Source: a virus
Length of the DNA: 53,311 nucleotides
Reading direction: 5' to 3' (one strand)
Virus record (IMG/VR): IMGVR_UViG_3300045988_149090
The notes below the pieces were generated by a model, which did no database searches, was not told where the DNA came from, and worked only from the letters and a program-made list of their open reading frames with translations. The translations under genes and the position numbers were made by a program. Below are positions 10,974-39,286 of the stretch, in pieces. Every line of letters begins with the position of its first letter. Position 1 is the stretch's first letter.

Positions 10974-11015
10974 TTTCGTTTTAGTCGCTTCGCTCCACGC
11001 TTTGGCGCTTTGCGC

Positions 11016-14000
11016 TTACAACACTTCGCGAATCGCTTTATACGCTTCCACGCTTTCCGCCCGAACGAGTTTGCCGCGGAAGGCCAGACGGGAGCCGACA
11101 TTCGCGCTCGAGTACGATGCATCGCTATTCGCATTCGCATTCGACACGCCGCCACTCGCATACGCATTGGAGGACCCGCGATAGACCACACGGAAGGCTG
11201 CGGTACTTATCCAATATTTATCGCAATAATATGTACTGGACGAGCCGTTAGCTGTTCCTACCGGTACGATATCCATGTATTTACCATGGGCAACACCTGT
11301 TATCCACTGGTCACTGATCGTTTTACCCTTCACCCAACGCACCGTGCCGTCCGGCATCCAAATACGCCATTTACCTTGGTTGCCACTATCGTTGGGTAAA
11401 TCAACACCGTCCATCATCTCGTACTTATGGCCGTAGATGTCCTCATAGCCCAGACAACTGATATTGTTTACCTGAGTCACGGTCGGAGAACCATACTCGT
11501 CCTGGCCACGATACCAAGCGTACTGGTGGATAGAACCGTCCACGATGGAATTCGTGATCTTGTCGTTTATTTTATACGCTTCGTCATAACCGATCGTATC
11601 CTGCATACCATAACCGGCTGTACCGCCCGTGATACGATTGCTCGTATGCTGACCGCCTCCGCACTGTTCCTGGCTGTCACGACGGCCATATCTTGCGTAA
11701 AACAAGTTCGCTATACGGGAGTGCATCAACGCGTCTATCTGTTGCATACCGCGCTGAACCGAGTAATAATGAAAGTCGATCCAGTTCATGCTGGCCGTCG
11801 TGGAATTACCTGTTATGCATGAACGCAACTTGCTACCTACCACGCTACTGCCTACTACCGCGCAAAGATGTTCCTCGTTGGCCACCCAATCGGGCTCCAT
11901 ATCCTCGATCTTGTCGGAGTTGGAAAGAACCACCTTGTCAAACTCGGCCGTGTTCAGGATCGAGAAGTGCAAGGCCGTGGCGTCCTCCGGAACATCCGAT
12001 ATCAAGTACATGCCGGCCTCGAACTTCAGACCGATCGTAGAGACCACGATGGTTTTGACCACGTTTCCGGAGCCGTCAACAAATAGACTGCCGACCAAAC
12101 CCGTACCGGGAACACTCGGAAAACGTACACGCTTATAGCCTTGTACATCCACCTTGCAGACTGAATAGGTCTTGTCCGTGCTATAAGAATCCTTCAACGT
12201 GGGTTTGCCACTCAAAAGTTTGCGCTCTGTAAGGAAACCGCCCTGCGTGTCTTTGATGTCGTCCAACGTCAGCACCGTCACATCCGGAACAGGAGGCATA
12301 TCGTCAGGGCCGTTGGAACTGTAACAGCTGTAATATTTCTCGTTCAGGTAGTCATTGACACCTTTCGACCAAAAGAACGGTTCGTACATCATCCAGTCGC
12401 CCTCGCTGCTGTCAAGTTTGGCTGCGCTGCCATCGTAGTATTTATTACTGCTGGTATCATCCAACGGACAATAGGTCATCTCGCCGTCCGGATTGTTCAC
12501 GTCAACCGTCTGGCCCGCCATCTCCACTTTACGGCTCGTGGGCTTTTTCGTCACCTTGGCAAGCACACGGTGGCGCTTCTTGAGGATCGCCGCCACGTGG
12601 GCATTCATGACGTAAGTATTGCCATACTTATAACCGGTCTCGTTGTCCGGGTTGGAAATGTTGGCATCGTCCGGAGCGCTTTCGTCCGACTCGATGATGC
12701 TGTAGGCCGGTTGTACGATCTCCAGTTCCGGATACCGCTCACGATACCGGTCGGCCTGTTCGTCATCCATGTACTTTGTCAGGCAGAGCCTGCCACGCAA
12801 TCCGGAATGACGGTTGTCTATCGCTCCGGTGGAGGTATAGGTACCATAATCGTAGTATTTCCCGAGCAGCCTGCCGTCATCCTCCATATCGATGTCAAGG
12901 ACAAAACGCTCCAGTTTACCGCTACCGTTCAACTTGGCCTGATGAAGACGTTCCAGCATGGCAAACCCGTCAATGCCCGGACAACCCATGAACCGGTAGC
13001 CTCGCACGTTACCGATGCCATCCAGTACCAATCCGCTCTCTGCCAACCTGGGAAGATATTCCAGAAACAGTTCCTCTATCGTTTCCGGCAAGCATAACTG
13101 CACAACAGGCGCACCGGTGGCAAGTTTCACGCGGGTAAGCCCCGTGCCTCTCACGTCCAGCTTCTTCAACCGTCCCTGCCAGCTCAAGTCCAAGGTCGTC
13201 ACGTTGCCGTTATCGCCATTCCGTGCCAGCAGGTTGTTGCGCATATTAAGCTCTTCCAGAAGAAGCATGCCGTTCGTCGAGGCCATGAATGAACCGTTAC
13301 GATAACCGCTGGCTTTCTCCACGCTCATGTCAAGTTTAACCAATGAGGTAAGCAAGCCGAAATTGAATCCGATGGCGAACGCGTCCTCATGCCACACCAG
13401 CTCCTTGACTTTGGCCGCGCCGATAATCTTCAGCGGGTCGTTCTCACCGAAGGCACGGGTCAGCTGCAGGGAGTGGAGCACGTCCGCATCCACCACGCCG
13501 CTGTCGGCCTGCACGCCGTTGCTGGTGGAAAGCTGCACACGGTACGGGATGGTCAGCCGGTACTGCATCGGCTTCAGTTTGTATGCCTTGTCCAGCGATG
13601 CCGTACTCTGGTAGAACTGGGCGCCCAGCGTAGAGACATAACCGTACTCCACCTGCTTCAGGTCATACCTGCGCTGGATGAAATAGTTACGGTGAGCTTT
13701 CAACGAACCCTTCAGACCGTAGATCTGCGGATACGTCTGTTTGGCACCGTCAGCCCCCACCGGCATCTCGTTCAGGAACGGATACACATACTTGAAGATG
13801 CCTGATTTGTTGTACAGCCGGCTGCACCACTTCTTCATCTGCTCGGTGTCGAAATGGTCAACGGCCTTCTGGATGCTGAAGGCACTCATGAAGCTGGTAC
13901 CGCCGTTCACACCCCTGGTCATCACTTCCTCCAGCAGATTGCCCATATTGCCCAGTATCAGGTTCCACAGCCAGCTGTTGTGTCCCTGCATCACATAGGC

Positions 14001-17000
14001 CCCGTCTCGCTTCGTCTGCCGGTTGTCGTCATACTTCCCGGTCAGGAACGACTTGTTGTCCGAACCCAGCTGGCAGTCACCGTCGTAATAGGTTATCCAC
14101 CACATCACGCCGTCCCATGTCCGCACCAGCATATTTTTCGCCAGCTGGTCCACACCCAGGTTGAACTGTACATACAGGTAGTAGGCGGCCAGGTTGGGAA
14201 GGTTGAAATACTTCCCGGCTTCCGCCTTGAAGGTCGGGCTCACCCATTTGGCCGTCGGGAACTTGTTGCCGTCATCCTCATAGTCCACCCCGTCAAAGGT
14301 GTGCGTCTCCTTGTTATAGGCCAGATTCTTGCCGGCAGGCGTTTCCTTCACGCATTTATAAAGGAAACTCATCATGCGGTCAAGCGCCTTGTACATCTTG
14401 TCGTACTTGTCACCGGTGCCCAGGTGTTCCTTGATGTTCGGTTCTTCTTCGGCATCACCTCCGCCATCGTTCCAGAACACGTCTTTCGGATGGTTGAACT
14501 CGAAACCGCCGTCAAAGTTGAAATCCATGAAGTCCGTATGGTCGGGCTCCGTGGACGGCAGCCAGCGGAACAGGCACAGGTCGTTCGAGTTGTTCAACGT
14601 CTCGATGCAGATGGGCAGGTATTCCTTCGGCCGGTCGCCGTTCGCCTGCAGGTAGTTCAGCGTATCACCGGTCCCCCACTGTTCTTCGCCGATGGTCTTG
14701 TCCTGGCCGAATATCGGGTAGCTGTCGCTCTTCTCGTTGTTCATGTTGTACTGGCCGTAGTAGGTCAGATCCTCATCCACACTCTTTGCCACAAACAGGT
14801 CACAGGGCAAGCCGTCAATGGCCGAGCGTATGTCTTCCTTGCACGTATCCGCATGGTCGGCGGCATACTGCTGGGCAGGGGTCAGGATACCCATTTCCTT
14901 CATGCCGTCATGGATGAACTTCGCGCCACCGGTGTTGGTGGTCATGGAGGAGTCCGAAAAGTCACACTTCGCACAGGCGAGTTTCGCCCCCACCGAGTTG
15001 TCCCGCAGTCGGAACAGGTTCTTCTTACCCTCCGTAGCTGTCGGGTTGCTCTGCTGCCCGTTACCGTCTATCTCGCCGTAGCTCATCCGTGCCGTGTAAC
15101 CGCTGGCTGTCTTCTGGAAGTAGAAGCGCAGGTTCTTGCGGGCATAGTTCACCGAACTGGTACCCTGGATACGCAGATAAATGTCACGGGCTATCCAGTC
15201 CAGCGCCCGGTTCTCACCGTTGTAGAATCTAACTTCCCGGCACAGCTTGTTGGCCTTCTTGTTGTTCAGCTGGGCCAGCGCATCCATCACGTTCAGCGTG
15301 TCGCTCTCGCTTGGCACCTCACTGCCCACGCTGCCCGTGCCTATCAGTACCAGGATCGAGTTCCGCCGCTTCTTCATCAGTCCCATCAGCTTCTCCATGC
15401 TCACCGTGTCCCCCTCGTTCAGCACGCGGTTGTCCTCATCCAGCGAACGCACGCCCGGTTCCCCGTCGGCATCCTCCAGATGGTTGCGGTCCACGATGTA
15501 GTTGTTAAGCACCTCGTCCGAAGTCAGCGCCTTGTTATAGATGCGCACGCTCTTCACGTTCAGGTCAGCCCCCTCCGATTTAAACTCCAGCTGGCTCCGG
15601 ATGTCGAAGTTCACCTTGTCCAGCCACTTCGAGGCGGCCGACTCCTCCCCGTTCACATAGAAGCCGATCAGCGTCCGCTGCTCGTTGGTCTCCACGTCCG
15701 GATAGAACACGTAAGTGATGCGGATATTCTTACCGGGTTCAAACTTCGTACCCACCGAGTCCTCATAGCGCAGGACCTGACCGGCATCCATCGCCTCCGT
15801 CACCACGCCGGTAAGGAACTTCGCCTCCTCCGGGGTCACCACCAGCCCGTAACGGTTGCCGTTTTGCAGGGTGCCCAGACAGGTGATCAGCTCCGCGTCG
15901 GTGTCAGTCACGTTGGCCGTGCTGTATTCTATCTCCAACGTCATGCCCACGTCGCGGATGGCAAAACCCTCGGGCTTGTCCGCCTCGTTGAACGGGCGAT
16001 AACCGCCGTCTGCCGTCAGTGTCATGCCCGCACCGCCGGCCAGCAGCAGGCGGTCCTTGTGCCAGCCGCTTCCTGCGCCGTATTCGTTCACGCTCCACAG
16101 CACATCACGGAATTCCATCCGTTTGTCCCCGCTCACCCAGCTTTCCGGGTTGTTTTCCGTGTTGCTTCGCCCGAAGGCATCGAACGTGCACACGGCATCC
16201 GGTGCCAGCGTGGCTTCAATGTCGGGGTGCGATGTGGTGTTCACCTGCACCTCAAGCACGGCATCACCGCACGACACACGGTAATCCAGCGGTTCCACGT
16301 TCACGTTCGTACGCCCGTAGCTGCCGGTCTCACCGCGCTGCAGCAGGTCTTCCTTCACCACACTGCCCCGGCTGGTCACTTTCACACGGGCCGTGTACGC
16401 ATCCCTGTCATAGCCGGCATACGTGAAGTTCCACGCCGTGAACTGCTCTGCCTCCAGTACGGGGTGCTTCCAGTCACGCTGGAACCCTGCCGCCCGGTGG
16501 TTGAACATCATGCCGGCATAGGCCGTCACACCTTCCCCGGCTTTCAGCAGGGTCAGGTAGTGTATCTCGCTCACCACGCCGGAGTTCTCGTGCAGCGCAT
16601 AGGCTTCCACCACGTTCATGCCCTCCCGCATTTCACTCAGCGCAACGGTGACGTTCTTCTGCTGGACACCGGAACCGGCTGACAGGCCAAGCGTATAGGG
16701 CTGCCCGCCGTTGATACGGTAGTAGATGTTCTTCTCGCCACTCGTTCCCTTAGCTGTAAATGGGATGTTCACGTCGTTCCGGTATCCCCCGTCAGCAAGT
16801 CCGTTCCCAACCGAATAAGTGGTACTTAGTTCCATAGCCACCATCGTCACCCTGGCGGTAGCGGTTTTCATCAGCGTACCGCCATCATAACCGGCCTGCG
16901 CCTCCACCTGCACGGTGTAGGTCGTGGCATCCTTCAGGTAAGGCGACGCGTCAAAAGTATAGCTCTGACCGGCCGTAACGCCGACAAACTCCGCATCCTG

Positions 17001-17537
17001 GAATTCTGAAAGGACCGTGGAGCCACGTTTTACGACCACCTTGGCCTTCAGGTCGCTGTAGCCACTCACCTCGCCGCCACCGGCCGTGCCCACGCCAACG
17101 GCATATCTCACCACGAAACCGGTACCCAACGACAAATACTGGGAAGCGGGCAAGGAGGAACCCGAAGCATCGGTCAGGTCTATATTCACCACCACCTTGT
17201 CATCGTCGCTATACTTGGAAAAGCGTACCTCCCTGTCGCTTTCCCCGCCTTCGCCATCCTTCTGCGTGACTGTCATCACGTACTGAGTGCCGTCCTCGCT
17301 GTCCGTCACGTCGATATTCGTCACGGTGCCCACCAGCGAGGCGAACACCGCGCCGCTCGTGGGGGCTTTCGTCTCACCGGCGGCCAGCTCCTCCGTAGGG
17401 GTGGCCTTGTCATCAATACTTTTGATATAGTTCTCCACCAACCGGCCGCTCACCGGAAGATTACCCGTGGATTCGTCACCGGACCAATCGGTCTTCTGCA
17501 TATCCAGACCGTCCTCGTCATACACTTTTTTCGCCAT
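11016..17537 (-). CDS. Giant tail fibre / receptor-binding protein (2173 aa) with C-terminal DGR variable region (C-type-lectin/FGE-like end)
   Basis: ATG start. It is the last gene of the tail operon. The C-terminus ...VVYRGSSNAYASGGVSNANANSDASYSSANVGSRLAFRG aligns to the TR. Internal LRR-like and CotH-like (TWDGVMWWITYYDGDCQLGSDN) stretches were seen by eye. Confidence 0.85.
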   Translation of the reverse strand: MAKKVYDEDGLDMQKTDWSGDESTGNLPVSGRLVENYIKSIDDKATPTEELAAGETKAPTSGAVFASLVGTVTNIDVTDSEDGTQYVMTVTQKDGEGGESDREVRFSKYSDDDKVVVNIDLTDASGSSLPASQYLSLGTGFVVRYAVGVGTAGGGEVSGYSDLKAKVVVKRGSTVLSEFQDAEFVGVTAGQSYTFDASPYLKDATTYTVQVEAQAGYDGGTLMKTATARVTMVAMELSTTYSVGNGLADGGYRNDVNIPFTAKGTSGEKNIYYRINGGQPYTLGLSAGSGVQQKNVTVALSEMREGMNVVEAYALHENSGVVSEIHYLTLLKAGEGVTAYAGMMFNHRAAGFQRDWKHPVLEAEQFTAWNFTYAGYDRDAYTARVKVTSRGSVVKEDLLQRGETGSYGRTNVNVEPLDYRVSCGDAVLEVQVNTTSHPDIEATLAPDAVCTFDAFGRSNTENNPESWVSGDKRMEFRDVLWSVNEYGAGSGWHKDRLLLAGGAGMTLTADGGYRPFNEADKPEGFAIRDVGMTLEIEYSTANVTDTDAELITCLGTLQNGNRYGLVVTPEEAKFLTGVVTEAMDAGQVLRYEDSVGTKFEPGKNIRITYVFYPDVETNEQRTLIGFYVNGEESAASKWLDKVNFDIRSQLEFKSEGADLNVKSVRIYNKALTSDEVLNNYIVDRNHLEDADGEPGVRSLDEDNRVLNEGDTVSMEKLMGLMKKRRNSILVLIGTGSVGSEVPSESDTLNVMDALAQLNNKKANKLCREVRFYNGENRALDWIARDIYLRIQGTSSVNYARKNLRFYFQKTASGYTARMSYGEIDGNGQQSNPTATEGKKNLFRLRDNSVGAKLACAKCDFSDSSMTTNTGGAKFIHDGMKEMGILTPAQQYAADHADTCKEDIRSAIDGLPCDLFVAKSVDEDLTYYGQYNMNNEKSDSYPIFGQDKTIGEEQWGTGDTLNYLQANGDRPKEYLPICIETLNNSNDLCLFRWLPSTEPDHTDFMDFNFDGGFEFNHPKDVFWNDGGGDAEEEPNIKEHLGTGDKYDKMYKALDRMMSFLYKCVKETPAGKNLAYNKETHTFDGVDYEDDGNKFPTAKWVSPTFKAEAGKYFNLPNLAAYYLYVQFNLGVDQLAKNMLVRTWDGVMWWITYYDGDCQLGSDNKSFLTGKYDDNRQTKRDGAYVMQGHNSWLWNLILGNMGNLLEEVMTRGVNGGTSFMSAFSIQKAVDHFDTEQMKKWCSRLYNKSGIFKYVYPFLNEMPVGADGAKQTYPQIYGLKGSLKAHRNYFIQRRYDLKQVEYGYVSTLGAQFYQSTASLDKAYKLKPMQYRLTIPYRVQLSTSNGVQADSGVVDADVLHSLQLTRAFGENDPLKIIGAAKVKELVWHEDAFAIGFNFGLLTSLVKLDMSVEKASGYRNGSFMASTNGMLLLEELNMRNNLLARNGDNGNVTTLDLSWQGRLKKLDVRGTGLTRVKLATGAPVVQLCLPETIEELFLEYLPRLAESGLVLDGIGNVRGYRFMGCPGIDGFAMLERLHQAKLNGSGKLERFVLDIDMEDDGRLLGKYYDYGTYTSTGAIDNRHSGLRGRLCLTKYMDDEQADRYRERYPELEIVQPAYSIIESDESAPDDANISNPDNETGYKYGNTYVMNAHVAAILKKRHRVLAKVTKKPTSRKVEMAGQTVDVNNPDGEMTYCPLDDTSSNKYYDGSAAKLDSSEGDWMMYEPFFWSKGVNDYLNEKYYSCYSSNGPDDMPPVPDVTVLTLDDIKDTQGGFLTERKLLSGKPTLKDSYSTDKTYSVCKVDVQGYKRVRFPSVPGTGLVGSLFVDGSGNVVKTIVVSTIGLKFEAGMYLISDVPEDATALHFSILNTAEFDKVVLSNSDKIEDMEPDWVANEEHLCAVVGSSVVGSKLRSCITGNSTTASMNWIDFHYYSVQRGMQQIDALMHSRIANLFYARYGRRDSQEQCGGGQHTSNRITGGTAGYGMQDTIGYDEAYKINDKITNSIVDGSIHQYAWYRGQDEYGSPTVTQVNNISCLGYEDIYGHKYEMMDGVDLPNDSGNQGKWRIWMPDGTVRWVKGKTISDQWITGVAHGKYMDIVPVGTANGSSSTYYCDKYWISTAAFRVVYRGSSNAYASGGVSNANANSDASYSSANVGSRLAFRGKLVRAESVEAYKAIREVL
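11084..11194 (-). repeat. DGR variable region (VR)
   Basis: The 111-nt segment aligns to TR 36978-37088 with 9 differences, every one at a TR adenine (A>C,T,C,T,G,G,T,G,G). Identity ends exactly at ...CCCGTCTGG. Confidence 0.9.
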
Positions 17538-17555
17538 ATCGTTATTCTTTAAAAG

Positions 17556-17732
17556 TTATTTCATCCGTTTCCAGCCATCCGTTCGGCTCCAGGGTTTGTC
17601 ACCGCGCCAAAAGCCCGCGCCGAAACAGCTCCGGATGGCTTGCCAAACCAGCCTGGCCCCTATATAGACCGTCGCCACCACCCGTTCGCCTACACGGATG
17701 GCTGTCACCTCTTTGTTTCCAACACTTATCAT
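17556..17732 (-). CDS. 58-aa ORF immediately upstream of the tail-fibre gene (hypothetical virion protein)
   Basis: Below the ORF-track cutoff. ATG at 17732 is preceded by GAGGAGGAATAGGT. Translation: MISVGNKEVTAIRVGERVVATVYIGARLVWQ... It fills an otherwise 197-nt gap. Confidence 0.4.
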   Translation of the reverse strand: MISVGNKEVTAIRVGERVVATVYIGARLVWQAIRSCFGAGFWRGDKPWSRTDGWKRMK

Positions 17733-17734
17733 AC

Positions 17735-18163
17735 CTATTCCTCCTCGTAAATCAGGTAAATGGTCTTGCCGTCCTTTTCCGGGAGACTTTCAAACTCCTC
17801 CTCACTCATCTCCTTATGTTTGTAGCCTTGGGCTATCGCATCCTCGGCCTTCTTCGCGGCCGCCTCCGCCTTTGCCGCCGATTCACCCGCCGTCTGAATG
17901 GCCTTTTTTGTCTCCTGGGTGGCCGCTTCCATTTCGGGAGCCAATCCCTCCACCCTTTCAGCGGCCTTGATCGCCCGGGCCGCCGCGTCATCGGCTGGCT
18001 TGCTCAATAAGGTGATCGGGACGTTCACCAGTTTGTCACCTTTCTGTCCCGGCAGGGATTTGACCCCGCTCAGCGAGCCGACCGTCTCAAGGGATTCGAC
18101 ACTCTTCGATTCCGCCTTGACCGCCTCCAAAACCTGGGCGATATCCGATTCTGTCAGTGCCAT
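17735..18163 (-). CDS. Hypothetical virion-associated protein (142 aa, Ala/Glu/Lys-rich)
   Basis: ATG start. Co-directional and tightly packed in the tail operon. Confidence 0.5.
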   Translation of the reverse strand: MALTESDIAQVLEAVKAESKSVESLETVGSLSGVKSLPGQKGDKLVNVPITLLSKPADDAAARAIKAAERVEGLAPEMEAATQETKKAIQTAGESAAKAEAAAKKAEDAIAQGYKHKEMSEEEFESLPEKDGKTIYLIYEEE

Positions 18164-18164
18164 A

Positions 18165-18452
18165 TCAAACCCCTCCCTCTATCAGTTCATAAACTTGGCC
18201 GTAACCGCCGGCCGTCAGGCTCTCGCCACATACCTCCTTGATAAGCGTACCCTCCTCGGTGGTGATCTCCAGGATTCCACCGCCCTGGATGATACGCTGG
18301 CACAGGACGTAAGCCTTGAACTTCTCATCACGGCCTACCGGTTTGTCTTTTCCGTAATTGAACAGGGCCTCCGCTACGGCGGTGGCGATGTTGTCGCCGC
18401 CAAGCTCGTTCCCGTCAAAGCCCCTGAATCTCCTGTTTAAGTCAACTTTCAT
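18165..18452 (-). CDS. Hypothetical phage protein (95 aa)
   Basis: ATG start, 1-nt gap to the next gene in the tail operon. Confidence 0.5.
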   Translation of the reverse strand: MKVDLNRRFRGFDGNELGGDNIATAVAEALFNYGKDKPVGRDEKFKAYVLCQRIIQGGGILEITTEEGTLIKEVCGESLTAGGYGQVYELIEGGV

Positions 18453-18472
18453 ATCTCTTTGGTTTTAAATGT

Positions 18473-22342: not shown

Positions 22343-22363
22343 ATTCGAATCGTCTTTGAATGG

Positions 22364-22828: not shown

Positions 22829-22829
22829 G

Positions 22830-27207: not shown

Positions 27208-27210
27208 ACG

Positions 27211-28551: not shown

Positions 28552-28565
28552 ACCACCCGGTTTTA

Positions 28566-30100: not shown

Positions 30101-30111
30101 TTTAAAGGTTT

Positions 30112-31047
30112 TCAAATTTCACAGGTCATTCCATATTCGGCCTTGTACAGACGCTTGTACTCCTCCGGGTTCTGCTCACGCATTTCAAGCAGTGCGTCAC
30201 TCGGGACATCGCTCAGCTTGGCATAGGTGGACGGCTGTGCCTGCTGCTTGCCACCCTGGTAACTCAGCACGGTGGAGATCTTCACCTGGGGTTGCATGGC
30301 ATCAAGCACATTCTTCAGCTCGTCGGATCCAACCTTCTTGCCCAGTTCGATAAACTGTGCCTTCTTGTCTTCCCCCAGTCGTTTCTCCGCTACGGCCTTT
30401 TCCACAAGACCGGTAATGCGGGCCAGGGTCAGCTTCCCGTTTTCATCTTTCAGAGAGTCATTCTCAGCCTTGGCCGCTTTCAGGTCATTCAATGCCCGGG
30501 TTACATCAGCCTCCGTCGCCGTTTCCGGCAGCCCCAATTGAAGGGCCAAAAGTTTCAGTTCCATTTCTTCTTCTGTTTTTTGATTATTGATTGATGGCAA
30601 GGGACATTCCCCGTCCCTTCCCAAAGTGATTTGTTTACCGTCTTTCATCAATATGATGGCATCATCGTTAGAACCAACGTCCACCAGAGAGACCTCGTAC
30701 AGTTTACTCTTGGTCACGGTCGGACAAGTCTGTCCCGGCAGTAGATGTTCGGGCTGTTCGCTCAGTTCCAGGATATCTATGCCGGCACTTACCATTCTCA
30801 GGCTGCCGAACTCAAATTGTTTCTTACACCTCTTACTGAGGTCGGTCGCCTCGTCAAACACGGGTTCACCGGTCACCTCGCCGTCTTCCACCCGGATATC
30901 CTTCACATAACCGATCACGCTACCGCGCTGGTGCATGTACAGCAGTACCGGATTCCGGCAGTACTGCTCCACACTCATGCCCGATGTCAGCACGCGGCTT
31001 CCGTAACTGTTCAGGCTGTCATTTGAAATTCTTACACGTTTACTCAT
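30112..31047 (-). CDS. Prohead protease fused to scaffold-like coiled-coil C-terminus
   Basis: The likely start is MSKRVRISNDSLNSYGSRVL at 31047. It has an HK97-protease-like N-half and an Ala/Glu/Lys-rich helical C-half, as in Mu gpI/Z. Confidence 0.6.
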   Translation of the reverse strand: MSKRVRISNDSLNSYGSRVLTSGMSVEQYCRNPVLLYMHQRGSVIGYVKDIRVEDGEVTGEPVFDEATDLSKRCKKQFEFGSLRMVSAGIDILELSEQPEHLLPGQTCPTVTKSKLYEVSLVDVGSNDDAIILMKDGKQITLGRDGECPLPSINNQKTEEEMELKLLALQLGLPETATEADVTRALNDLKAAKAENDSLKDENGKLTLARITGLVEKAVAEKRLGEDKKAQFIELGKKVGSDELKNVLDAMQPQVKISTVLSYQGGKQQAQPSTYAKLSDVPSDALLEMREQNPEEYKRLYKAEYGMTCEI

Positions 31048-31103
31048 TTTTCCATGCCACGCCTTTGTGCGTTGGCTCTGCAATATTACGGAGCACTCGC
31101 AGG

Positions 31104-31167
31104 GCCGCCAAAAATGTGTGCAACGGTTGCACACTTCTATGAAACCGTTACACATTATTTTGGCGGC
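31104..31167. promoter_or_regulatory. Nested palindromes in the divergent late-operon control region
   Basis: GTGTGCAAC-g-GTTGCACAC at 31116-31134 lies inside GCCGCCAAAAATG (31104-16) / CATTATTTTGGCGGC (31153-67). The region sits between the minus-strand protease/capsid operon and the plus-strand terminase operon. Confidence 0.45.
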
Positions 31168-31255
31168 AAACCGATAAGCGGACAACTTTGCGAACAAATC
31201 GGGCAGGTGTACAGTCATTCCAATACCTGCCGTTCAAACCTATATTCTTTATAAT

Positions 31256-31720
31256 ATGACAAAGGCAGAAATCGAAAAGAAGAAATCGCTCGCACGCTCA
31301 CTATTCCTCTCCGGAATGGAGCAAACGGAAATAGCGGAAAAGGTGGACGTGTCTCGTGTCACCATATCCAAATGGTGTACCTCCGAAGGGTGGAAAGAAG
31401 CAAGGGCGGCAAAGAACGTCACTCGCCCGGAACTGGTGAACAAGCTTCTGCTCACCATCGACACGCTTATCACACAAGTGAACTCGTCGGATGACCCCAC
31501 ATTGATAGCCGGGCTGGGCGACAAGCTGGCAAAACTGTCGGCGGTCATCGAGAAGCTCGACAAGAAGGCCAATGTGGTGGATGCCATCGAAGTGTTCATG
31601 GCATTTTCCAAATGGATCGAATACCGCTCGACGATCGACCCGGATGTGACCCCGGAATTGGTAAAGGCCATCAACAAGTACCAGGACCTGTACATAACCG
31701 AACAGATGGGCATAAAATAA
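31256..31720 (+). CDS. Terminase small subunit-like DNA-binding protein
   Basis: N-terminal HTH (MEQTEIAEKVDVSRVTISKW). Located immediately upstream of the large terminase. Confidence 0.6.
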   Translation: MTKAEIEKKKSLARSLFLSGMEQTEIAEKVDVSRVTISKWCTSEGWKEARAAKNVTRPELVNKLLLTIDTLITQVNSSDDPTLIAGLGDKLAKLSAVIEKLDKKANVVDAIEVFMAFSKWIEYRSTIDPDVTPELVKAINKYQDLYITEQMGIK

Positions 31721-31727
31721 CAAGGGC

Positions 31728-33287
31728 ATGGCAACAGCAGCGGAAAAGAAACAGGCATACGAACAGTGGAAAGAACACTGCAAAAGGGTACAGTCCATTA
31801 CGGATACGGCGCTGCTCGCAGGCGAGACACCGGCACAAAGGGACAGGCGCATTCTGCGGCTGCAGGGTAACTATGCCGCATTCTGCGAATATTACTTTCC
31901 CCACTTCCTCACCTTGCGTGACAAGACTACCGGGGAAGCCATACGCACCATTCACAATGCACCGTTCCACAATGCGGCAGCGGCCAAAGTAAGGGGTACG
32001 CCCAACCTGAAGGCGGTATTCATGTGGCCGCGCGGTCATGCCAAGTCCACTCACATGGACATCTTCGTCCCATTATGGCTCATGTTCCAACCAAAGCGGC
32101 TCATCAATTTCATGGTGGTGGTCGGCAAAAGCGAAGACTCTGCCACACGTCTGCTGGGCGATATTCAGGCGGAACTGGAACACAACCAGCGCATCATTGC
32201 CGACTTCGGCAAGCAGCAGGGGAATGCCTCCTGGCAGGATGGGGAGTTCAAGGCTGCCAACGGGGTGAAATTCCTGGCTTGCGGACGCGGACAGTCTCCG
32301 CGTGGTCTGCGCGACCGGGAAGCACGCCCGGACTACATCGTCATCGATGACTTGGATGACGACGAACTGTGCCGCAATGAGAAACGGGTGCATGACATTA
32401 CAGACTGGGTGAAAGAAGCCCTTTTTGGTGCACTGGATGTGGGCCGGGGACGCTTTATCATGGTCGGGAACCTCATTTCTAAAAACTCGGTGCTGGCCAA
32501 TCTCACCAAGACAAAAGGGGTACATGTATCCGTCATCAAGGCAATAGACAAGAACGGAGAACCGGTATGGCGCGAAAAATGGACGAAAGAGGAGGCGCAG
32601 GAATACAGGGATTTCGTAGGCTACCGGGCATGGGAAAAGGAGATGATGCACAACCCCATCGTGGACGGCACTATCTTCCGGGCAGACTGGATTCGTTACA
32701 AGAAACTGCCCAGACTGTCCAAGTATGAAATGCTGGTCTGCTATACCGACCCCTCTTTCAAATCGACCACTTCAAACGACTACAAGGCTTGCCGCCTTTG
32801 GGGCAAGATTGGGAAGGAACTGCACCTTATAGACTGTTACGTCCGGCAGGATACCGTTTCCGGAATGGTACGGTGGCTTTACGACCTCTACGAGCGTACA
32901 CGCGATACGGCAGCCGTCCAGTTCTTTATGGAAGCGAACTTCATGCAGGATGTCATTCTGGATGAGTTTGAGGCAGAAGGAAATCTGCGTGGATACCAAC
33001 TGCCCATCATGCCGGACAAACGAAAGAAGCCGGACAAGCTCCAGCGCATCGAAGCGGTGTCACCATTATGGGAACGCGGTTTCGTATTCTACAATGAGAA
33101 GTTGAAAGAATCGCCGGATATGCAGACCGGAATCGAACAGACCTTGGCTCTGGAGCGTGGCAGCCGTATTCACGATGATGCACCGGATGCCGACGAGGGA
33201 GCCATCTGGATGCTGCAGCGCAATTCAAGACAGGAGAGTTTTCAACCGGTGTTCGGCAAAAGGCCGACCGCCAAAAATATATGGTAA
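31728..33287 (+). CDS. Terminase large subunit
   Basis: Walker A-like WPRGHAKST and Walker B IVIDDLDDDE. It has a C-terminal nuclease-like half. 519 aa. Confidence 0.85.
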   Translation: MATAAEKKQAYEQWKEHCKRVQSITDTALLAGETPAQRDRRILRLQGNYAAFCEYYFPHFLTLRDKTTGEAIRTIHNAPFHNAAAAKVRGTPNLKAVFMWPRGHAKSTHMDIFVPLWLMFQPKRLINFMVVVGKSEDSATRLLGDIQAELEHNQRIIADFGKQQGNASWQDGEFKAANGVKFLACGRGQSPRGLRDREARPDYIVIDDLDDDELCRNEKRVHDITDWVKEALFGALDVGRGRFIMVGNLISKNSVLANLTKTKGVHVSVIKAIDKNGEPVWREKWTKEEAQEYRDFVGYRAWEKEMMHNPIVDGTIFRADWIRYKKLPRLSKYEMLVCYTDPSFKSTTSNDYKACRLWGKIGKELHLIDCYVRQDTVSGMVRWLYDLYERTRDTAAVQFFMEANFMQDVILDEFEAEGNLRGYQLPIMPDKRKKPDKLQRIEAVSPLWERGFVFYNEKLKESPDMQTGIEQTLALERGSRIHDDAPDADEGAIWMLQRNSRQESFQPVFGKRPTAKNIW

Positions 33288-33288
33288 C

Positions 33289-33519
33289 ATGATACAACTG
33301 ATTAAAAGAATGATTTTTGCATGGCGCTATAAACGTGCCGTTGCCCGTGCTTGCAAGTATGCCAAGCTCTACGGAAGAAAATACTACGTCCTGTATATGG
33401 GCGGCAAACTGAAAGTTGTCCCCAAAAGGAATATCTGCGAACTGATTCACCGCCACCGTTTCCGCAAGGGAACCACTATCCGGGATATAGAAAAAATGGC
33501 ATTATTCATCACTAAATAA
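33289..33519 (+). CDS. Small basic hypothetical protein (76 aa)
   Basis: ATG at 33289, right after the terminase stop. The upstream part of track ORF 33157-33519 overlaps the terminase. Confidence 0.4.
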   Translation: MIQLIKRMIFAWRYKRAVARACKYAKLYGRKYYVLYMGGKLKVVPKRNICELIHRHRFRKGTTIRDIEKMALFITK

Positions 33520-33526
33520 TAAGGTC

Positions 33527-33946
33527 ATGTTCATTACAGAAGAAGATTACAAAGTTGTCATCGGCGACAACGCATTGAAGGTCATCTCCCAGGTAAGCCC
33601 GGAAAACCGTACCAATGCAGAAGCGGAAGCCCGGGAAGAAATTGCCGGTTATCTACGGCCGAAATACGACTGTACGGCCATTTTCTCTGCACAGGATGAA
33701 CACCGGAACCGGCTCATTGTCATGTACACCTGCGACATTTCACTTTACCACATGAGCGCAGCCATGCCACAAAAGATGGGAAGCGAGATACGCAAGGAAC
33801 GATATGAACGGGCCATCAAGTGGCTTGAAGGCGTACAGGCCGGAAAAATTGTCCCTGATTTGCCCTTGGCTGTCGGAGAAGATGGGCTTCCGTCCGGAAA
33901 TTCACTTGTTTACAGCTGTCAGAAGCAGCTTCATCATAATTGGTAG
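33527..33946 (+). CDS. Mu gp36-like (DUF1320-like) head-associated protein
   Basis: 139 aa between terminase and portal. The start MFITEEDYKVVIG...L and overall pattern resemble the gp36 family as I recall it. Confidence 0.45.
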   Translation: MFITEEDYKVVIGDNALKVISQVSPENRTNAEAEAREEIAGYLRPKYDCTAIFSAQDEHRNRLIVMYTCDISLYHMSAAMPQKMGSEIRKERYERAIKWLEGVQAGKIVPDLPLAVGEDGLPSGNSLVYSCQKQLHHNW

Positions 33947-33950
33947 GACT

Positions 33951-35261
33951 ATGGATATTAAAGACTTTTTCAGCGGTATGTTTTCCAGTAAACCGAAAAA
34001 CGTACTGCAAACGCCATACGGCAATTTTAATCTGGCCAAGGGGAAAGACATCAAGCGGGTGCAGAAAATGGTCATCGACCTGCAGCGCACCACCGATGCA
34101 CTCACCCGGAAGGACATCAAGAACTGGCGCGATGCCTGGCAGTCGGCCATCAATGTGGACAGCCCCAGCCGCCAGCGCCTGTACGACATCTACCGGGACG
34201 CGGAAATAGATCTTCACCTCTCCGGATGCGTGGAGCAGCGCAGAGGGTTTGTCATGGCACGCTCTTTCAAAATCGTAGACGTGAAAGGGGATGAGAACGA
34301 GGAGGCGGTACACTTCTTCGACCAATCCTGGTTCAAACAGCTCATGCGATATGCGCTCGATTCCATCTACTGGGGACATTCGCTCATCGAATTGGGCGAC
34401 CTTTGCACTGACGGCGACGGCTGCATCTGTTATTCGGATGTGAAGCTTATTCCGCGTAAGCATGTCATTCCTGAATATGGGCGTGTCATAACCGACCTCG
34501 GACAGGACTGGACTACAGGTATAGACTACCGCCAGCCGCCTTTTTCGGACTGGCTCATTGAGGCCGGCAGACCTGACGACCTCGGGCTGTATCTCAAGGC
34601 AGCTTCACAGACTATCCCCAAAAAGAATATGCTGGCTTTTTGGGATACCTTCGGGGAAATATTCGGAATGCCCATGCGTATAGCACGCACCACCTCGCGC
34701 GACCAGAAAGAAATCGACCGCCTTGACAAGATGCTGCGTGAAGCCGGAACCGCTCTCTCCATGGTGGCAGGAATGGAAACCGAAATCGAATTTGTGGAAA
34801 GCGGCAAGGGAGATGCATTCAATGTCTATGACAAGCGCATCGATCGGGCCAATTCCGAACTGTCAAAGCTTATCATCGGACAAACGATGACCATTGAGGA
34901 CGGAAGCAGCCTCTCACAGTCTGAAACGCACCTTGAAGTGTTCCAGAACCTCGTGGAAAGTGACTGCGACATGCTGCGGGATATAGTGAACAACCAACTC
35001 ATTCCGCGCATGGTTCGTCACGGTTTTCCTGTCAAGGGACTGCGTTTTGATTGGGACTACTCCATTGACTACACTCCCGAACAGCAGAAAGCCTACGAAG
35101 AAATGGTACTGCAGCACTACAAGGTGAAGCCACAGTACTTTGAGGAAAAATACGGCATTCCGTGCGAGGAGAAGGAACCGAAGGAAGAGCCGGACCCGGC
35201 AGATCCGAAAAAGAAGAAAGACGACAAACAGGCTGGAACGCTATCCCGTTTTTTCGACTGA
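33951..35261 (+). CDS. Portal protein (Mu gp29 / DUF935-like)
   Basis: ATG at 33951 (MDIKDFFSG). 436 aa. Located upstream of the MuF-like gene. W..AW..A...PSRQRLYDIYRD pattern present. Confidence 0.75.
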   Translation: MDIKDFFSGMFSSKPKNVLQTPYGNFNLAKGKDIKRVQKMVIDLQRTTDALTRKDIKNWRDAWQSAINVDSPSRQRLYDIYRDAEIDLHLSGCVEQRRGFVMARSFKIVDVKGDENEEAVHFFDQSWFKQLMRYALDSIYWGHSLIELGDLCTDGDGCICYSDVKLIPRKHVIPEYGRVITDLGQDWTTGIDYRQPPFSDWLIEAGRPDDLGLYLKAASQTIPKKNMLAFWDTFGEIFGMPMRIARTTSRDQKEIDRLDKMLREAGTALSMVAGMETEIEFVESGKGDAFNVYDKRIDRANSELSKLIIGQTMTIEDGSSLSQSETHLEVFQNLVESDCDMLRDIVNNQLIPRMVRHGFPVKGLRFDWDYSIDYTPEQQKAYEEMVLQHYKVKPQYFEEKYGIPCEEKEPKEEPDPADPKKKKDDKQAGTLSRFFD

Positions 35262-35353
35262 GCCCCGAGGATTATTCGGGGCTGCATCTACGCTACAGTT
35301 CATTGCTTGGCAATCATACCCTCCAACTCTCAAAAGAGGACGAGGCAAAATTG

Positions 35354-36580
35354 ATGCGTGACAAGCTTACAGAGATGTTCGACCGCATGATGAAAGCCCT
35401 GTTCCGGGAGCAGGGGGCAAACCTTGAAATCAACATACTGGCTTCAGAAGAGGCGCAGGACTTTATAGAGACGCACGCCTCCGTCCTGGACTCTTCATTC
35501 CGGCAGGTGGAGATGTCCGAGGCCATGCGAGGGCGCCTGCAGAGGTCGGATTATATATTCTCAGGCCTAAAGACGTTCCATGAACTGAACGAAGCCTTCC
35601 CCTCCCTGCTGGATGAGAACGGCAATCGAAAAACGTTCGAACGCTTTTTGAACGATGTCCGGAAGATAGACGAAACCTATAATCGGGGCTACCTCCGGGC
35701 AGAGTACAACTTTGTGCAGGCTTCGGCGACTATGGCCGCCAAGTGGGAACGGTTCGCAGAAGACGGGGACCGCTACAACCTCCAGTACCGGACGGCCGGG
35801 GATGGCAAGGTTCGCCCGGAACATGCCGAACTGCATGGGGTAACACGACCTATGGCAGACCCCTTTTGGGAAGAGTATTTCCCGCCAAATGGATGGAACT
35901 GCAGGTGCACCGTAGTCCAGGTACGAAAATCCAAATATCCGGAAACGCCCTACGATGAGGCAATGGCATTGGGCGAGTCAGCCCTTCAAAGGGACACCAA
36001 AGGCATCTTCCGGTTCAACCCGGGAAAAGAACAGAAGACCATGCCGGATTACAACCCATACACCATCAAAAGGTGCAGGGATTGTGATATGGCCAAAGGG
36101 AAACTTAAACTGGCCTTCGTTCCGGACAACGAGCTGTGCGCCGCCTGCAAAATACTGCAAAAATGCGCCGGAGACCGGGAAAAGTCCGCACGAGCTATCG
36201 AACGTATCCATTATCTGCATGAAATGGAGCCTCTACTTCAAAAGAAAGTGGAAAAGAACATAAATGGCAAGGACTTGAATATCGGCTTTACCAAAGAGGG
36301 CAACAAGCACTTGTTCTCCGACACATTCGGACGGACACGCATCGTTTCCAAGGAGGACTTGAAGAACCTGGATTCACACCTTGAACGTGCCGAATATGTG
36401 GATGATTCCGCATTGACTCACCCAAGGACGGACAATGTGGAACACTTCTTCTACTTCAAAGTTAAAATCAATGGAAAATGGGTAAGGCTTAATGTTGCCA
36501 AAGAAGTAACAAGAAGGGATAACGGTTATATCCGCATAAAATACTTTTTATACTCAGTAAATGATATAATAGTAGAATAA
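35354..36580 (+). CDS. MuF-like head morphogenesis protein with about 190-aa C-terminal extension
   Basis: MuF signature ...VRPEHAELHG...PPNGWNCRCTVVQV. It is followed by CRDCDMAKG...CAACK and a beta-rich terminal domain. ATG at 35354. Confidence 0.8.
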   Translation: MRDKLTEMFDRMMKALFREQGANLEINILASEEAQDFIETHASVLDSSFRQVEMSEAMRGRLQRSDYIFSGLKTFHELNEAFPSLLDENGNRKTFERFLNDVRKIDETYNRGYLRAEYNFVQASATMAAKWERFAEDGDRYNLQYRTAGDGKVRPEHAELHGVTRPMADPFWEEYFPPNGWNCRCTVVQVRKSKYPETPYDEAMALGESALQRDTKGIFRFNPGKEQKTMPDYNPYTIKRCRDCDMAKGKLKLAFVPDNELCAACKILQKCAGDREKSARAIERIHYLHEMEPLLQKKVEKNINGKDLNIGFTKEGNKHLFSDTFGRTRIVSKEDLKNLDSHLERAEYVDDSALTHPRTDNVEHFFYFKVKINGKWVRLNVAKEVTRRDNGYIRIKYFLYSVNDIIVE

Positions 36581-36689
36581 AAAAAACAAAAGCACCAAGG
36601 GCGACACTTTGGACTAAAACGCCTGCTCGTCATTCCCTCAATGCTTCTGTGTTTGCAAATATACAAAACATTTTTTAATCCAATTGCTT

Positions 36690-36923
36690 ATGAACAAGAT
36701 TCTTTCATTTTTGAAACAAAGTAACCGCTACAAACACCTGGTAGGCGGTTTTATCGTGGGGCTGCCAGCCCTGACACCGTACGCGGCCTTATACGCAGCC
36801 GCCATCGCAGCCTCCTCGCTGGAGCTCAAAGACAAGCTCCGGGGCGGTCGTTGGGACTGGACGGACTGGACACTCACCGTGACCGGAGGAGCAATCGCCG
36901 CATTGATTTTCCTCGTTATCTAA
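36690..36923 (+). CDS. Small membrane protein (2 predicted TM helices), just upstream of the TR
   Basis: ATG at 36690 (the track start at 36684 is TTG). Hydrophobic segments: HLVGGFIVGLPALTPYAALYAAAIAASSL and TLTVTGGAIAALIFLVI. Confidence 0.5.
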   Translation: MNKILSFLKQSNRYKHLVGGFIVGLPALTPYAALYAAAIAASSLELKDKLRGGRWDWTDWTLTVTGGAIAALIFLVI

Positions 36924-36977
36924 CAAGGGGACTGGCTTTTATCCGTACCTTTGCACCCCGGTGGAGCTTCCTGATAG

Positions 36978-37088
36978 TCCGTGTGGTCTATCGCGGGTAC
37001 AACAATGCGAATGCGAATGGCGGCGTGTCGAATGCGAATGCGAATAACGATGCATCGAACTCGAACACGAATGTCGGCTCCCGTCTGG
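36978..37088 (+). repeat. DGR template repeat (TR); the 37089-37301 spacer precedes the RT
   Basis: 111 nt containing 27 adenines. It is rich in AAY codons in the VR frame (YNNANANGGVSNANANNDASNSNTN). Same strand as the RT and 213 nt upstream of it. The hairpin GGGGACGTGTCCCC lies in the spacer. Confidence 0.9.
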
Positions 37089-39227: not shown

Positions 39228-39286
39228 GTGTACGCTTCTGCGCATAAATAAGTGAGACAGTGCAAAAGTACTAATTTTTGTTGAAT

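Follow-up and report, generated by a model that had tools for sequence, protein, structure and literature searches.

Hankyphage p00 (Bacteroides phage p00, BK010646; Benler 2018, PMC6199706; PMC12135933) carries its DGR in a compact form, with the variable repeat (VR, 38049-38164) and the template repeat (TR, 38419-38534) on one strand and 255 nt apart. DGRs of the p00 type are active in culture (PMC12135933). For Bordetella phage BPP-1, action of the donor functions in trans was shown experimentally, as cited in PMC5758913. Wu et al. 2018 (PMC5758913) found non-adjacent targets in 45 of 372 DGRs and described, among these, two phage-associated DGRs without an adjacent target and one target 20 kb off. 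DGRs with non-adjacent targets are also known from Treponema and Legionella, and some gut prophages have a second VR at a distance (PMC12629997).

Here, we investigated a 53,311-nt stretch of viral DNA (IMG/VR record IMGVR_UViG_3300045988_149090), called the window below. We consider it highly probable that this Mu-like Bacteroidales prophage carries a working DGR whose donor module and target lie apart, and that one cassette can rewrite any compatible VR in the cell. See Table 1 for the coordinates of all features. Homology to the window ends at 10648-10654 in at least 13 independent contigs or genomes, which then continue into unrelated host DNA, and TCCGCAAAACGAAA is common to both prophage ends in inverted orientation (10659 and 51591-51604). 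Between these ends are MuA-like, MuB-like, Mu portal, and Mu F genes. The prophage is of a very common Mu-like Bacteroidales type and is a distant relative of Hankyphage p00. The DGR target is the last gene ahead of the right prophage end, and unrelated host genes directly adjoin it in eight NCBI genomes.

Table 1. Features of the prophage and its DGR (window coordinates).
Feature	Position	Strand	Basis or remark
Mu-like transposable prophage, ~41 kb	~10654..51617		Homology limits, shared inverted ends, Mu-type genes; ends approximate to a few bases
DGR target, 2173-aa tail-fibre-type protein	11016..17537	-	ORF; homologous to p00 target 31489-38226
Candidate hairpin TTCCGC-N15-GCGGAA	11055..11081	-	Earlier note; codes for protein C terminus
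Putative IMH-like 3' boundary: invariant GC-rich VR end GTCGGCTCCCGTCTGG plus VR-specific flank CCTTCCGCGG	11074..11099	-	TR/VR divergence point
VR, codons ~2115-2151 of target	11084..11194	-	TR match; hypervariable in relatives
Terminase, Mu-type portal, Mu F head genes	31728..36580	+	Pfam Portal_Mu, Phage_Mu_F; directly upstream of TR-RT, co-oriented
Small hydrophobic ORF, 77-79 aa	36684..36923	+	Immediately upstream of TR
TR, W type	36978..37088	+	Alignment to VR; copies in relatives
RT-3 RNA (Rfam RF03068), TR-RT spacer	37098..37244	+	136 bits, E = 9e-33, model 1-148 of 148
DGR reverse transcriptase (RT), 433 aa	37302..38603	+	RVT_1 1.4e-14; YCDD, IGLRSSQ motifs
DUF4376 protein, 161 aa	38603..39088	+	Pfam DUF4376; start overlaps RT stop
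Small HTH protein, weak Mor-like match	within block 39278..41072	+	Pfam
Thymidylate synthase (thyA)	39598..40236	+	Pfam; relocated block
D12-class adenine methyltransferase	40233..41072	+	Pfam; relocated block
MuB-like ATPase	45630..46502	-	AAA_22 and HTH domains in MuA/MuB region; tblastx to p00 MuA/MuB region
MuA-like transposase	46541..48559	-	AAA_22 and HTH domains in MuA/MuB region; tblastx to p00 MuA/MuB region

The TR aligns without gaps to the reverse complement of the VR over 111 nt, with 102/111 positions matching. All nine mismatches (TR coordinates 36999, 37001, 37002, 37010, 37017, 37047, 37058, 37065, and 37067) fall on an A of the TR, which holds 27 A in total (hypergeometric P = 9.3e-7), and the adenine-only pattern claimed in an earlier note on this DNA was thereby reproduced. 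So was the abrupt end of identity, which is sharp on both sides; beyond it the TR reads AAATCTAAC and the VR reads CCTTCCGCG. Read in the VR frame, the TR has its adenines at codon positions 1/2/3 in a ratio of 12/14/1 and contains 11 AAY codons, in line with the AAY richness described before. The TR-VR separation of 25.8 kb and the opposite strands are also as claimed. No third copy of the repeat was found within the window. The VR had been taken for the last ~35 codons of the target protein; it does lie near the C-terminus, but 22 codons still follow. The VR domain, a candidate C-type-lectin fold, gave no Pfam or PDB sequence match, and its single-sequence AF2 model had a pLDDT of only 30, so the fold could not be confirmed.

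Together with the adenine-only TR/VR pair, the RVT_1-type RT with its YCDD and IGLRSSQ motifs and a full-length RT-3 RNA directly 3' of the TR bear out the DGR reading. The RT-3 family is also found 3' of the TR in p00, in type-B and type-C phages, and in other split cassettes, and this RNA is presumably the 3' part of the template RNA. The small ORF upstream of the TR has no Pfam or NCBIfam match; it is kept in split cassettes at 59-100% amino acid identity, and canonical type-C phages carry it between their VR and TR, with homology beginning at window position 36689. The DUF4376 ORF is annotated as "Avd" in GenBank Hankyphage records (see the note in PV107404). However, its AF2 model (pLDDT 94) is an alpha/beta structure, not a four-helix bundle, and gave no match below E = 0.7 against the PDB. 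The protein thus lacks the Avd fold, and no canonical Avd turned up elsewhere. A role of the DUF4376 protein in the DGR is plausible.

At the 3' boundary, TR and VR part exactly after CTGG. The VR flank CCTTCCGCGG is kept in every target type (W, B, C, and p00), and TR flanks vary. By analogy with the BPP-1 model, this boundary may function like an IMH. The earlier note had also pointed out a candidate hairpin here. The inverted repeat is present in the sequence, but a structure is not borne out: the DNA fold has z = +0.89, 164/200 shuffles fold equally well or better, and the 3' arm carries uncompensated changes in C-type and p00-type flanks.

The prophage in the window and p00 are both Mu-like transposable Bacteroidales phages with homologous giant tail-fibre targets and a C-terminal VR. 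Both have a homologous RT (81% amino acid identity), RT-3 RNA, and DUF4376 ORF; thyA and a gene for a Dam-like methylase come next, and in both the VR ends in CTGG and then CCTTCCGCGG. Their head and early modules share only ~25-50% amino acid identity. The p00 order is early genes, structural genes, and then VR, TR, RT, and so on. Unlike in p00, the TR-to-methylase block of the window is inverted and separates the early genes from the head genes, and the target lies right at the end of the prophage. This block is the only part relocated and inverted relative to p00, with the breakpoint between VR and TR (p00 38326-38401); its 39278-41072 portion is collinear and co-oriented with p00 40687-42596. 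By synteny, then, it was the donor block (TR-RT-DUF4376-thyA-methylase) that moved, and the target stayed put. The remote, inverted geometry described earlier stands, but the target is not the displaced part. The comparison with published Hankyphage genomes that the note proposed shows the split geometry to be absent there, with VR and TR co-stranded in p00. A related RT occurs in 24/24 related GenBank phage records, and in the 20 most similar it lies within ~5 kb of the record end, as in p00; at E <= 1e-20, the window-type Mu F has no match in any of the 24.

The split layout is, nonetheless, not the exception it had been taken for, but the usual organization in a sister lineage that is large and very common. 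The order portal-MuF-TR-RT occurs in 47/67 IMG/VR loci with a related RT, across at least eight TR types. Twelve IMG/VR contigs are collinear with the window across MuF-TR-RT at 96-99.8%. The window layout is shared by ten assembly loci, of which nine come from eight NCBI genomes and one is an ENA contig. In these, collinearity reaches the right end at 97.8-99.9% and host genes come next after the target. The 25.8-kb spacing was seen again in three genomes. TR/VR repeats and Mu-like transposition in culture can mislead assemblers, and the TR-RT block might have been misplaced or inverted in the window assembly. We give this next to no credence, as dozens of independent assemblies, complete NCBI chromosomes among them, reproduce the MuF-TR and target-to-host junctions. 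Because 47/67 IMG/VR loci and ten assembly loci share it, the split layout is neither an artefact nor a one-off.

We then asked whether variation in related genomes and contigs is confined to TR-adenine positions, as the earlier note had suggested. A flank-anchored search, blind to VR content, returned 46 distinct VRs, including 29 well-aligned W-type VRs (30 tabulated). In the W-type VRs, 316/810 A cells (39%) were changed versus 53/2520 non-A cells (~2%); of the latter, 13 fall at boundary position 1, and a single indel outlier accounts for about 29. The VRs are thus hypervariable at TR-A positions and near-invariant elsewhere. The TR itself is invariant, being identical in 11/12 IMG/VR copies, 2 GTDB genomes, and 4/5 further assemblies. 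A single TR/VR pair cannot date mutagenesis, and with neither Avd nor a hairpin found, the A-to-N differences might date from a time of TR/VR adjacency, the rearranged element no longer homing. Such a relic is very improbable: split-layout prophages (98-99.9%) all differ in their VRs, only at TR-adenine positions, and CP103067.1, a genome with two copies of the prophage, has a different VR in each. The layout has also been kept across its TR types with RT and RT-3 RNA intact. As far as sequences can tell, the DGR is active in the split geometry across related genomes.

Several VRs do not match the TR beside them. Four loci (L019, L022, L024, and L027) equal the B-type loci L037 and L038 in their flanks (299/300 upstream, 231/231 spacer, 598/600 downstream) and in the adjacent TR-B (111/111), yet their VRs have the W base at 9/10 diagnostic non-A positions. 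The RT ORFs adjacent to the mismatched VRs are intact. A W-type TR lies 25.9 kb off in the same prophage in IMG 2921101260_000002, and 129.7 kb from the mismatched VR in P. massiliensis SN4. Conversely, a prophage near-identical to the window (GCA_024463155.2) has a p00-type VR, and a W-type prophage (IMG 3300045988_103955) has a mosaic VR; because of these two, the prophage's own TR is evidently not the sole donor. As VR backbones beside an intact TR-B cassette match a window-type TR that is distant in the same prophage or lies in another one, homing appears to act in trans. DGR donor functions do work in trans from a plasmid, as cited in PMC5758913. The W-pattern searches that first yielded mismatched VRs select W-type VRs, and their hits therefore give no measure of how often each donor is used. 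Some metagenome contigs (e.g., L056 and L087) may be TR/VR assembly chimeras.

Alternatively, the mismatched VRs could stem from co-infecting phages whose VR regions underwent homologous recombination or gene conversion with each other, with the split DGR writing only its own VR. These phages are mosaic, with targets 78-99% identical to the window paired with different cassettes; the VR of L087 is an exact, unmutated TR-B copy, unlike mutagenic homing; and the donor of the p00-type VR in GCA_024463155.2 was searched for but not located. We still regard this as unlikely. The extent of the converted tract matches that of the TR-homologous segment (5' edge at VR positions 1-11, 3' edge at 101 to +11), and the upstream and spacer flanks that are nearly or fully identical to B-type phages are just 67-76% identical to W-type targets. 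Sequence shared at the tract edges, ~10-20 nt, is short for RecA-type exchange. Furthermore, converted VRs bear fresh A-position substitutions relative to TR-W, and in 3/3 checkable cases the genome also carries a W-type TR.

We therefore favor homing in trans from a separate donor module. This module comprises the small ORF, TR, RT-3 RNA, RT, and DUF4376 protein, downstream of and co-oriented with terminase-portal-MuF; its target is the tail-fibre gene at the right prophage end, 25.8 kb off on the other strand. On the model of BPP-1 and of the p00-type DGR, whose activity is known from experiment, TR-RT-3 RNA would be transcribed as a unit, and the RT would copy it into cDNA with misincorporation opposite template adenines. 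The cDNA would then replace the VR, probably guided by shared 5' homology and the conserved 3' boundary (GTCTGG then CCTTCCGCGG). With such a diffusible intermediate, adjacency and orientation of TR-RT and VR would not matter, and one cassette could rewrite any compatible VR in the cell, be it in a different prophage or beside a second cassette that is itself intact.

In general, the window DGR resembles that of BPP-1 in its adenine-specific TR-to-VR flow, which reaches the C-terminal part of a receptor-binding protein, in its AAY-rich TR and GC-rich IMH-like end, and in a structured RNA between TR and RT (RT-10 in BPP-1, RT-3 in the window; PMC5737381). However, BPP-1 keeps mtd-VR, avd, TR, and brt in that order within ~3 kb. 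It also possesses a four-helix Avd and, past its IMH, a GC-rich cruciform that is functional; in the window, no Avd fold and no significant hairpin turned up. Like other DGRs with non-adjacent targets, the window DGR has its target kilobases from TR-RT. In most of those, the remote VR is extra to an adjacent one; in the window, the sole target is remote and inverted. Unlike these earlier examples, the window layout is fixed across a large, very prevalent phage lineage, and in natural variants a remote or foreign TR appears to have overwritten the VR beside another intact cassette.

The template repeat (TR) and the reverse complement of the variable repeat (VR) align without gaps over 111 nt with 102 matches, and identity breaks off sharply on either side of the repeat. 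All 9 mismatches lie at plus-strand adenines of the TR, which has 27 adenines in 111 nt (chance P = 9.3e-7). The adenine-only differences, the distance between the repeats, and their opposite strands, as described in the earlier note, are therefore confirmed. In the minus-strand VR frame, 12, 14, and 1 of the TR adenines fall at codon positions 1, 2, and 3, and there are 11 AAY codons. No third copy of the repeat was present in the window. The VR had been placed in the last 35 codons of the target gene; it is indeed near the C-terminus, at codons ~2115–2151 of a 2173-codon ORF, but a further 22 codons follow it. See the table for the coordinates of these and other features.

Coordinates of the features discussed, in the window and in Hankyphage p00
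Feature	Window	Strand in window	p00	Remark
Tyrosine integrase gene	7919-9115			
Relaxase gene, C-terminal part	9790-10650	-		
Limit of matches to other contigs and genomes	10648-10654			
Mu-like prophage	10654-51617			
Target (tail-fibre) ORF	11016-17537	-	31489-38226	
Candidate hairpin	11055-11081			
VR	11084-11194	-	38049-38164	
Antisense ORF, 942 codons	13854-16682	+		
ORF of 142-aa product	17735-18163			
Antisense ORF, 799 codons	19937-22336	+		
TR	36978-37088	+	38419-38534	
RT-3 RNA	37098-37244			38551-38700 in retrieved locus L001
DUF4376 ORF	38603-39088			
Small ORF	39278-39529			
Structural genes	10916-36000		38326-12650	inverted; tblastx map
TR through methylase	36961-41068		38401-42596	same orientation; tblastx map
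Early genes	43604-51321		9158-431	inverted; tblastx map

The 3′ boundary of the repeat shows the distinction between IMH and IMH*. The VR has an invariant GC-rich end, GTCGGCTCCCGTCTGG, and then a VR-specific flank, CCTTCCGCGG, which is conserved in all target types; the TRs are instead followed by AAATCTAAC or ACAACAATCG. We regard the invariant VR end and its flank together as the putative IMH. About 34% of DGRs have a GC-rich hairpin or cruciform immediately 3′ of the IMH (PMC5758913). The hairpin proposed beside the VR in the earlier note (6-bp stem, 15-nt loop) is not supported and was rejected as a DGR cruciform, as its DNA fold is no stabler than shuffled sequences (z = +0.89) and its arms change in relatives without compensation. 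For the VR domain itself, examined for a C-type-lectin or Ig fold, neither Pfam (E <= 1) nor a PDB sequence search gave any match, and an AF2 model from the single sequence was unusable (pLDDT 30). By eye only, the VR peptide RVVYRG...VGSRLAFRG resembles CLec-type VRs.

We searched for variation of the repeat in other genomes. Because a first pattern search, which constrained non-A bases over the 70 nt at the 3′ end of the repeat, was treated as biased, the test was rerun with a pattern anchored on the 45 nt 3′ of the VR, ignoring the VR content. This returned 46 complete VRs, each distinct. Among VRs with the window-type (W) backbone (30 tabulated, 29 of them well aligned), 316 of 810 adenine cells were substituted (39%) versus 53 of 2520 non-adenine cells (~2%); 13 of those 53 fall at boundary position 1 and ~29 come from one indel-bearing sequence. 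The population check on A-templated positions proposed in the earlier note is thus positive. The W-type TR was identical in 11 of 12 IMG/VR copies, and ten loci (nine in eight NCBI genomes and one ENA contig) carried ten different VRs. The complete chromosome CP103067.1 (GCA_024758205.1) has two prophage copies, at 1.66 and 2.63 Mb (loci L186 and L187), with VRs that differ from each other and depart from the TR at 14 and 13 A positions, respectively. With hypervariable W-type VRs, an invariant TR, and ten different VRs in ten loci, the DGR has therefore gone on diversifying its target in the split geometry.

DGR-type reverse transcriptases (RTs) carry YxDD and, in motif 4, [LIV]GxxxSQ, the latter being diagnostic. 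The window RT has an RVT_1 domain (E = 1.4e-14) with both YCDD and IGLRSSQ, and is 81% identical in amino acid sequence to the RT of Hankyphage p00 (Bacteroides phage p00, BK010646), whose DGR type is experimentally active in culture (PMC12135933). Nine bases 3′ of the TR is a full-length RT-3 RNA (Rfam RF03068, 136 bits). The RT-3 family was also found 3′ of the TR in five related cassettes, including p00, canonical cassettes of types B and C, and other split ones. RT-1 to RT-19 were described by Weinberg et al. as orphan motifs near RT genes, with RT-10 placed between the TR and RT of BPP-1 (PMC5737381). In all cassette types examined, RT-3 occupies precisely the interval between TR and RT. 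Therefore, RT-3 can be assigned to this DGR family and is evidently the TR-RT spacer RNA of the p00/window DGRs, the counterpart of RT-10 in BPP-1. Together, the RT, the TR/VR pair, the RT-3 RNA, and the population variation bear out the DGR interpretation of the earlier note.

The sole conserved RT-linked ORF encodes a DUF4376 protein and overlaps the RT stop codon. Recent GenBank Hankyphage records label it “Avd.” No match to canonical Avd or an Avd-family Pfam entry was found in the donor block. An AF2 model of the DUF4376 protein from a 30-sequence alignment (pLDDT 94) has a mixed α/β fold, not a four-helix bundle, and had no PDB match with E < 0.7, so we rejected its identification as canonical Avd. 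Judging from this model, the protein may be either a new DGR accessory protein or the product of an ORF unrelated to homing. A small ORF in the same block has weak HTH and Mor-family matches (E about 0.004); it may encode an activator of late genes that travels together with the DGR, thyA, and the methylase gene.

The surrounding element is a Mu-like transposable prophage encoding MuA-like and MuB-like proteins, a Mu-type portal, and Mu F. Its ends share the motif TCCGCAAAACGAAA in inverted orientation, and a short direct repeat, CCTT(T/C), flanks them. The match to the window stops at the same prophage end in dozens of independent contigs and genomes, which then run on into unrelated host DNA; this DNA differs in each genome carrying the prophage, indicating variable insertion sites. 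The prophage splits a MobA/VirD2-type relaxase gene, whose frame continues across the excised junction, with host DNA resuming at 51618. A tyrosine integrase gene adjoins the interrupted relaxase gene, so the phage sits inside what is in turn a mobilizable or integrative element. Two very long ORFs on the antisense strand of the target gene and of the gene for a 1289-aa tail protein are probably a by-product of codon composition.

The split arrangement, which the earlier note took as unusual, proved to be common. Twelve IMG/VR contigs are collinear with the window through the MuF-TR-RT junction at 96–99.8% identity. A protein-guided search for RT relatives gave 67 IMG/VR loci: 47 have the order portal-MuF-(small ORF)-TR-RT-thyA, 17 have target-VR-TR-RT, and 3 were too short for a call. 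At least 8 different TR sequences occur in split cassettes. The 142-aa tail-region protein of the window has exact matches listed in 22,595 assembly blocks; for the RT, the figure is 6,136. Ten places among the listed matches to the 142-aa protein are collinear with window positions 28163-10654 at 97.8–99.9% identity, with different host genes directly after the target in each. Furthermore, the TR-VR spacing of 25.8–25.9 kb recurs in GCA_048453085.1, GCA_033058855.2, GCA_024463155.2, and IMG 2921101260_000002. The split layout is neither an artefact nor an oddity, and the lineage is extremely common in human gut data.

We then compared the window with p00, the closest described phage. Both are Mu-like transposable phages of Bacteroidales with MuA/MuB, a Mu portal, and Mu F. 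The split layout itself is absent from p00, whose right end carries on one strand the target, the adjacent VR, a 64-codon ORF, and the TR, and then RT, the DUF4376 ORF, thyA, and a methylase gene. Whereas p00 has the order early-structural-donor, the window phage reads early-[methylase..RT, TR inverted]-structural-target-VR-end. The target is still directed at the right end. A single inversion relative to p00 was rejected, as the early and structural blocks are oriented with respect to each other as in p00. Therefore, the change is a relocation plus inversion of a 4.4-kb donor block, the only displaced segment, with a breakpoint exactly between VR and TR. In the window, this block lies 3′ of terminase-portal-MuF on the same strand. 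The remote, inverted geometry reported earlier is thus real, but the donor block has moved and not the target. No significant match of the p00 ends was found in the window as an attR remnant beside the relocated block. An origin of the remote cassette as a recent duplicate of an adjacent one was also rejected, as W-type cassettes have only 70–75% nucleotide identity to types B, C, and p00.

By megablast, p00-like records match the window only over the TR-RT-DUF4376 region, at ~75% nucleotide identity. Many tail genes of the two phages are 60–85% identical in amino acid sequence, compared with only 25–50% in head and early genes, and the window Mu F has no match in Hankyphage records at E <= 1e-20. 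The Hankyphage genus cut-off is over 70% intergenomic similarity (PMC12135933), and the window phage would fall short of it, as judged from these matches. On its sequence, we place it in a lineage related to, but distinct from, Hankyphage p00. Among 24 GenBank phage records with a related RT, the 20 most similar have the RT within about 5 kb of the record end, as in p00.

Some VRs do not match the TR beside them. In six IMG/VR contigs and two GTDB genomes, the target-VR adjoins a TR-RT of type B, C, or p00-like, and the VR agrees with the W-type TR at all or all but one of the non-A positions while differing from its own adjacent TR at 6–18; the searches that first exposed these VRs select for W-type VRs, and several of the cases are short metagenome contigs. 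The clearest comparison is between four loci with such a VR (L019, L022, L024, and L027) and two with a matching one (L037 and L038). Their upstream flanks (299/300), VR-TR spacers (231/231), adjacent type-B TRs (111/111), and next 600 nt (598/600) are identical or nearly so. At diagnostic non-A positions, the former four have the W base at 9 of 10 (positions 11 to 101), and the latter two the B base at 10 of 10. The converted tract lies within the TR-homologous segment; its 5′ limit falls somewhere in positions 1–11, and its 3′ limit somewhere from position 101 to +11. Converted VRs carry fresh A-position substitutions relative to the W-type TR, and the adjacent RT ORFs are intact.

A W-type TR was found in each of the three checkable cases with a mismatched VR. 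In IMG 2921101260_000002, it lies 25.9 kb from the VR in the same collinear prophage, which therefore holds two cassettes. In Parabacteroides massiliensis SN4, it is on the same scaffold 129.7 kb away, and at that separation presumably in a second prophage. In Mediterranea massiliensis P2645T, it is on a separate contig from the mismatched VR. B-type VRs occur on contigs where only the type-B TR cassette was detected. The opposite direction is seen in a prophage of GCA_024463155.2 (JANGCV020000001.1; loci L181, 16970-17080, and L191, 1177-1287) that is 99.8–99.98% identical to the window. It has an exact W-type TR 25.85 kb from the VR, yet the VR backbone is of p00 type, with one internal non-A mismatch to the p00 TR versus 18 to its own TR. 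A p00-type phage was sought in this assembly; the cluster representative P0121 was found on one unrelated contig, and the donor was not located.

The simplest reading of the mismatched VRs is a diffusible intermediate. The cDNA or RNP would diffuse, and the choice of target would be set solely by the short VR boundaries common to all target types, CGTCTGG and then the conserved flank. Distance, strand, and even the prophage of residence would be irrelevant to homing, and the donor block could therefore be relocated without loss of function. Such independence of distance and strand is in keeping with a phage whose replication involves transposing to many sites on the chromosome. Short-patch recombination between the VRs of co-infecting phages would also yield mismatched VRs. 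We consider it less economical because the tract edges coincide with the limits of the TR and because only about 10–20 nt are shared at those edges, in flanks that are 67–76% identical. With a diffusible intermediate, DGR homing in this phage family would be promiscuous in trans: a cassette would rewrite any VR in the cell with the shared IMH-like boundary, be it 25.9 kb away on the opposite strand, beside an intact TR-RT, or in a co-resident prophage. The directions would be from W-type cassettes to B- and C-type phages and from p00-type cassettes to W-type phages. We put the chances of this reading as a whole at about even.

Several further VR arrangements were observed. The VR of IMG/VR 3300045988_103955 (VR L108; TR L113/L007) is a mosaic. 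Its 5′ part agrees with its own TR, down to a private G20A, whereas its IMH-proximal positions 77–104 have the diagnostic bases of a C-like TR, as though written from two TRs, one of which contributed near the IMH alone. Metagenome contig L087 has, within a window-type target, a VR identical to the type-B TR and free of mutations, and on metagenome contig L056, TR-upstream sequence and a C-like TR are joined to the 3′ flank of the VR and to the phage end. Either these two contigs are chimeras assembled at the TR/VR repeat, or they record non-mutagenic conversion or recombination. In the polylysogens NZ_LT700191.1 and NZ_LT635838.1, a W-pattern search located a W-type TR, and the other prophage carried a VR with the W backbone. 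No W-pattern VR was among the matches listed for the W-type prophage’s own target (~1.117 Mb and ~742 kb, respectively), and reciprocal VR overwriting is possible.

In effect, nature has already done the genetics: these variants combine identical flanks with an intact neighbouring cassette and a VR written from a different, distant TR. They argue that homing does not require adjacency, a given strand, or even residence in the same prophage, and that related cassettes can compete for, or cross-template, one VR. If homing in trans is correct, the backbone of a VR would tell which donor wrote it last, phages sharing a cell would trade receptor-binding scaffolds or force them on one another, and freedom to act in trans would be what let the donor block leave its target. 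This bears on host-range evolution in polylysogens. DGR activity and induction have already been measured for the Bacteroides thetaiotaomicron Hankyphage (PMC12135933), and homing in trans is directly testable in that system.

DGR surveys and annotation pipelines mostly seek a VR beside the RT. Roux et al. 2021 state that remote targets escape their survey pipeline, and the lineage is extremely common; therefore, a major class of active phage DGRs may be under-called or mis-paired. The DGR element class is not new, nor is the possibility that it acts remotely. Wu et al. listed 45 of 372 DGRs with non-adjacent targets, including two phage-associated DGRs without an adjacent target and with a single target 20 kb off, and cite trans complementation of BPP-1 donor functions (PMC5758913). 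Distal second VRs are known in four gut prophage species (PMC12629997). The Hankyphage papers examined contain only the adjacent layout. Against this background, three things appear new: the split, inverted layout, fixed as the standard organization of a very prevalent phage lineage; the link of RT-3 RNA to this DGR family; and natural evidence of a distant or foreign TR overwriting a VR beside an intact cassette.
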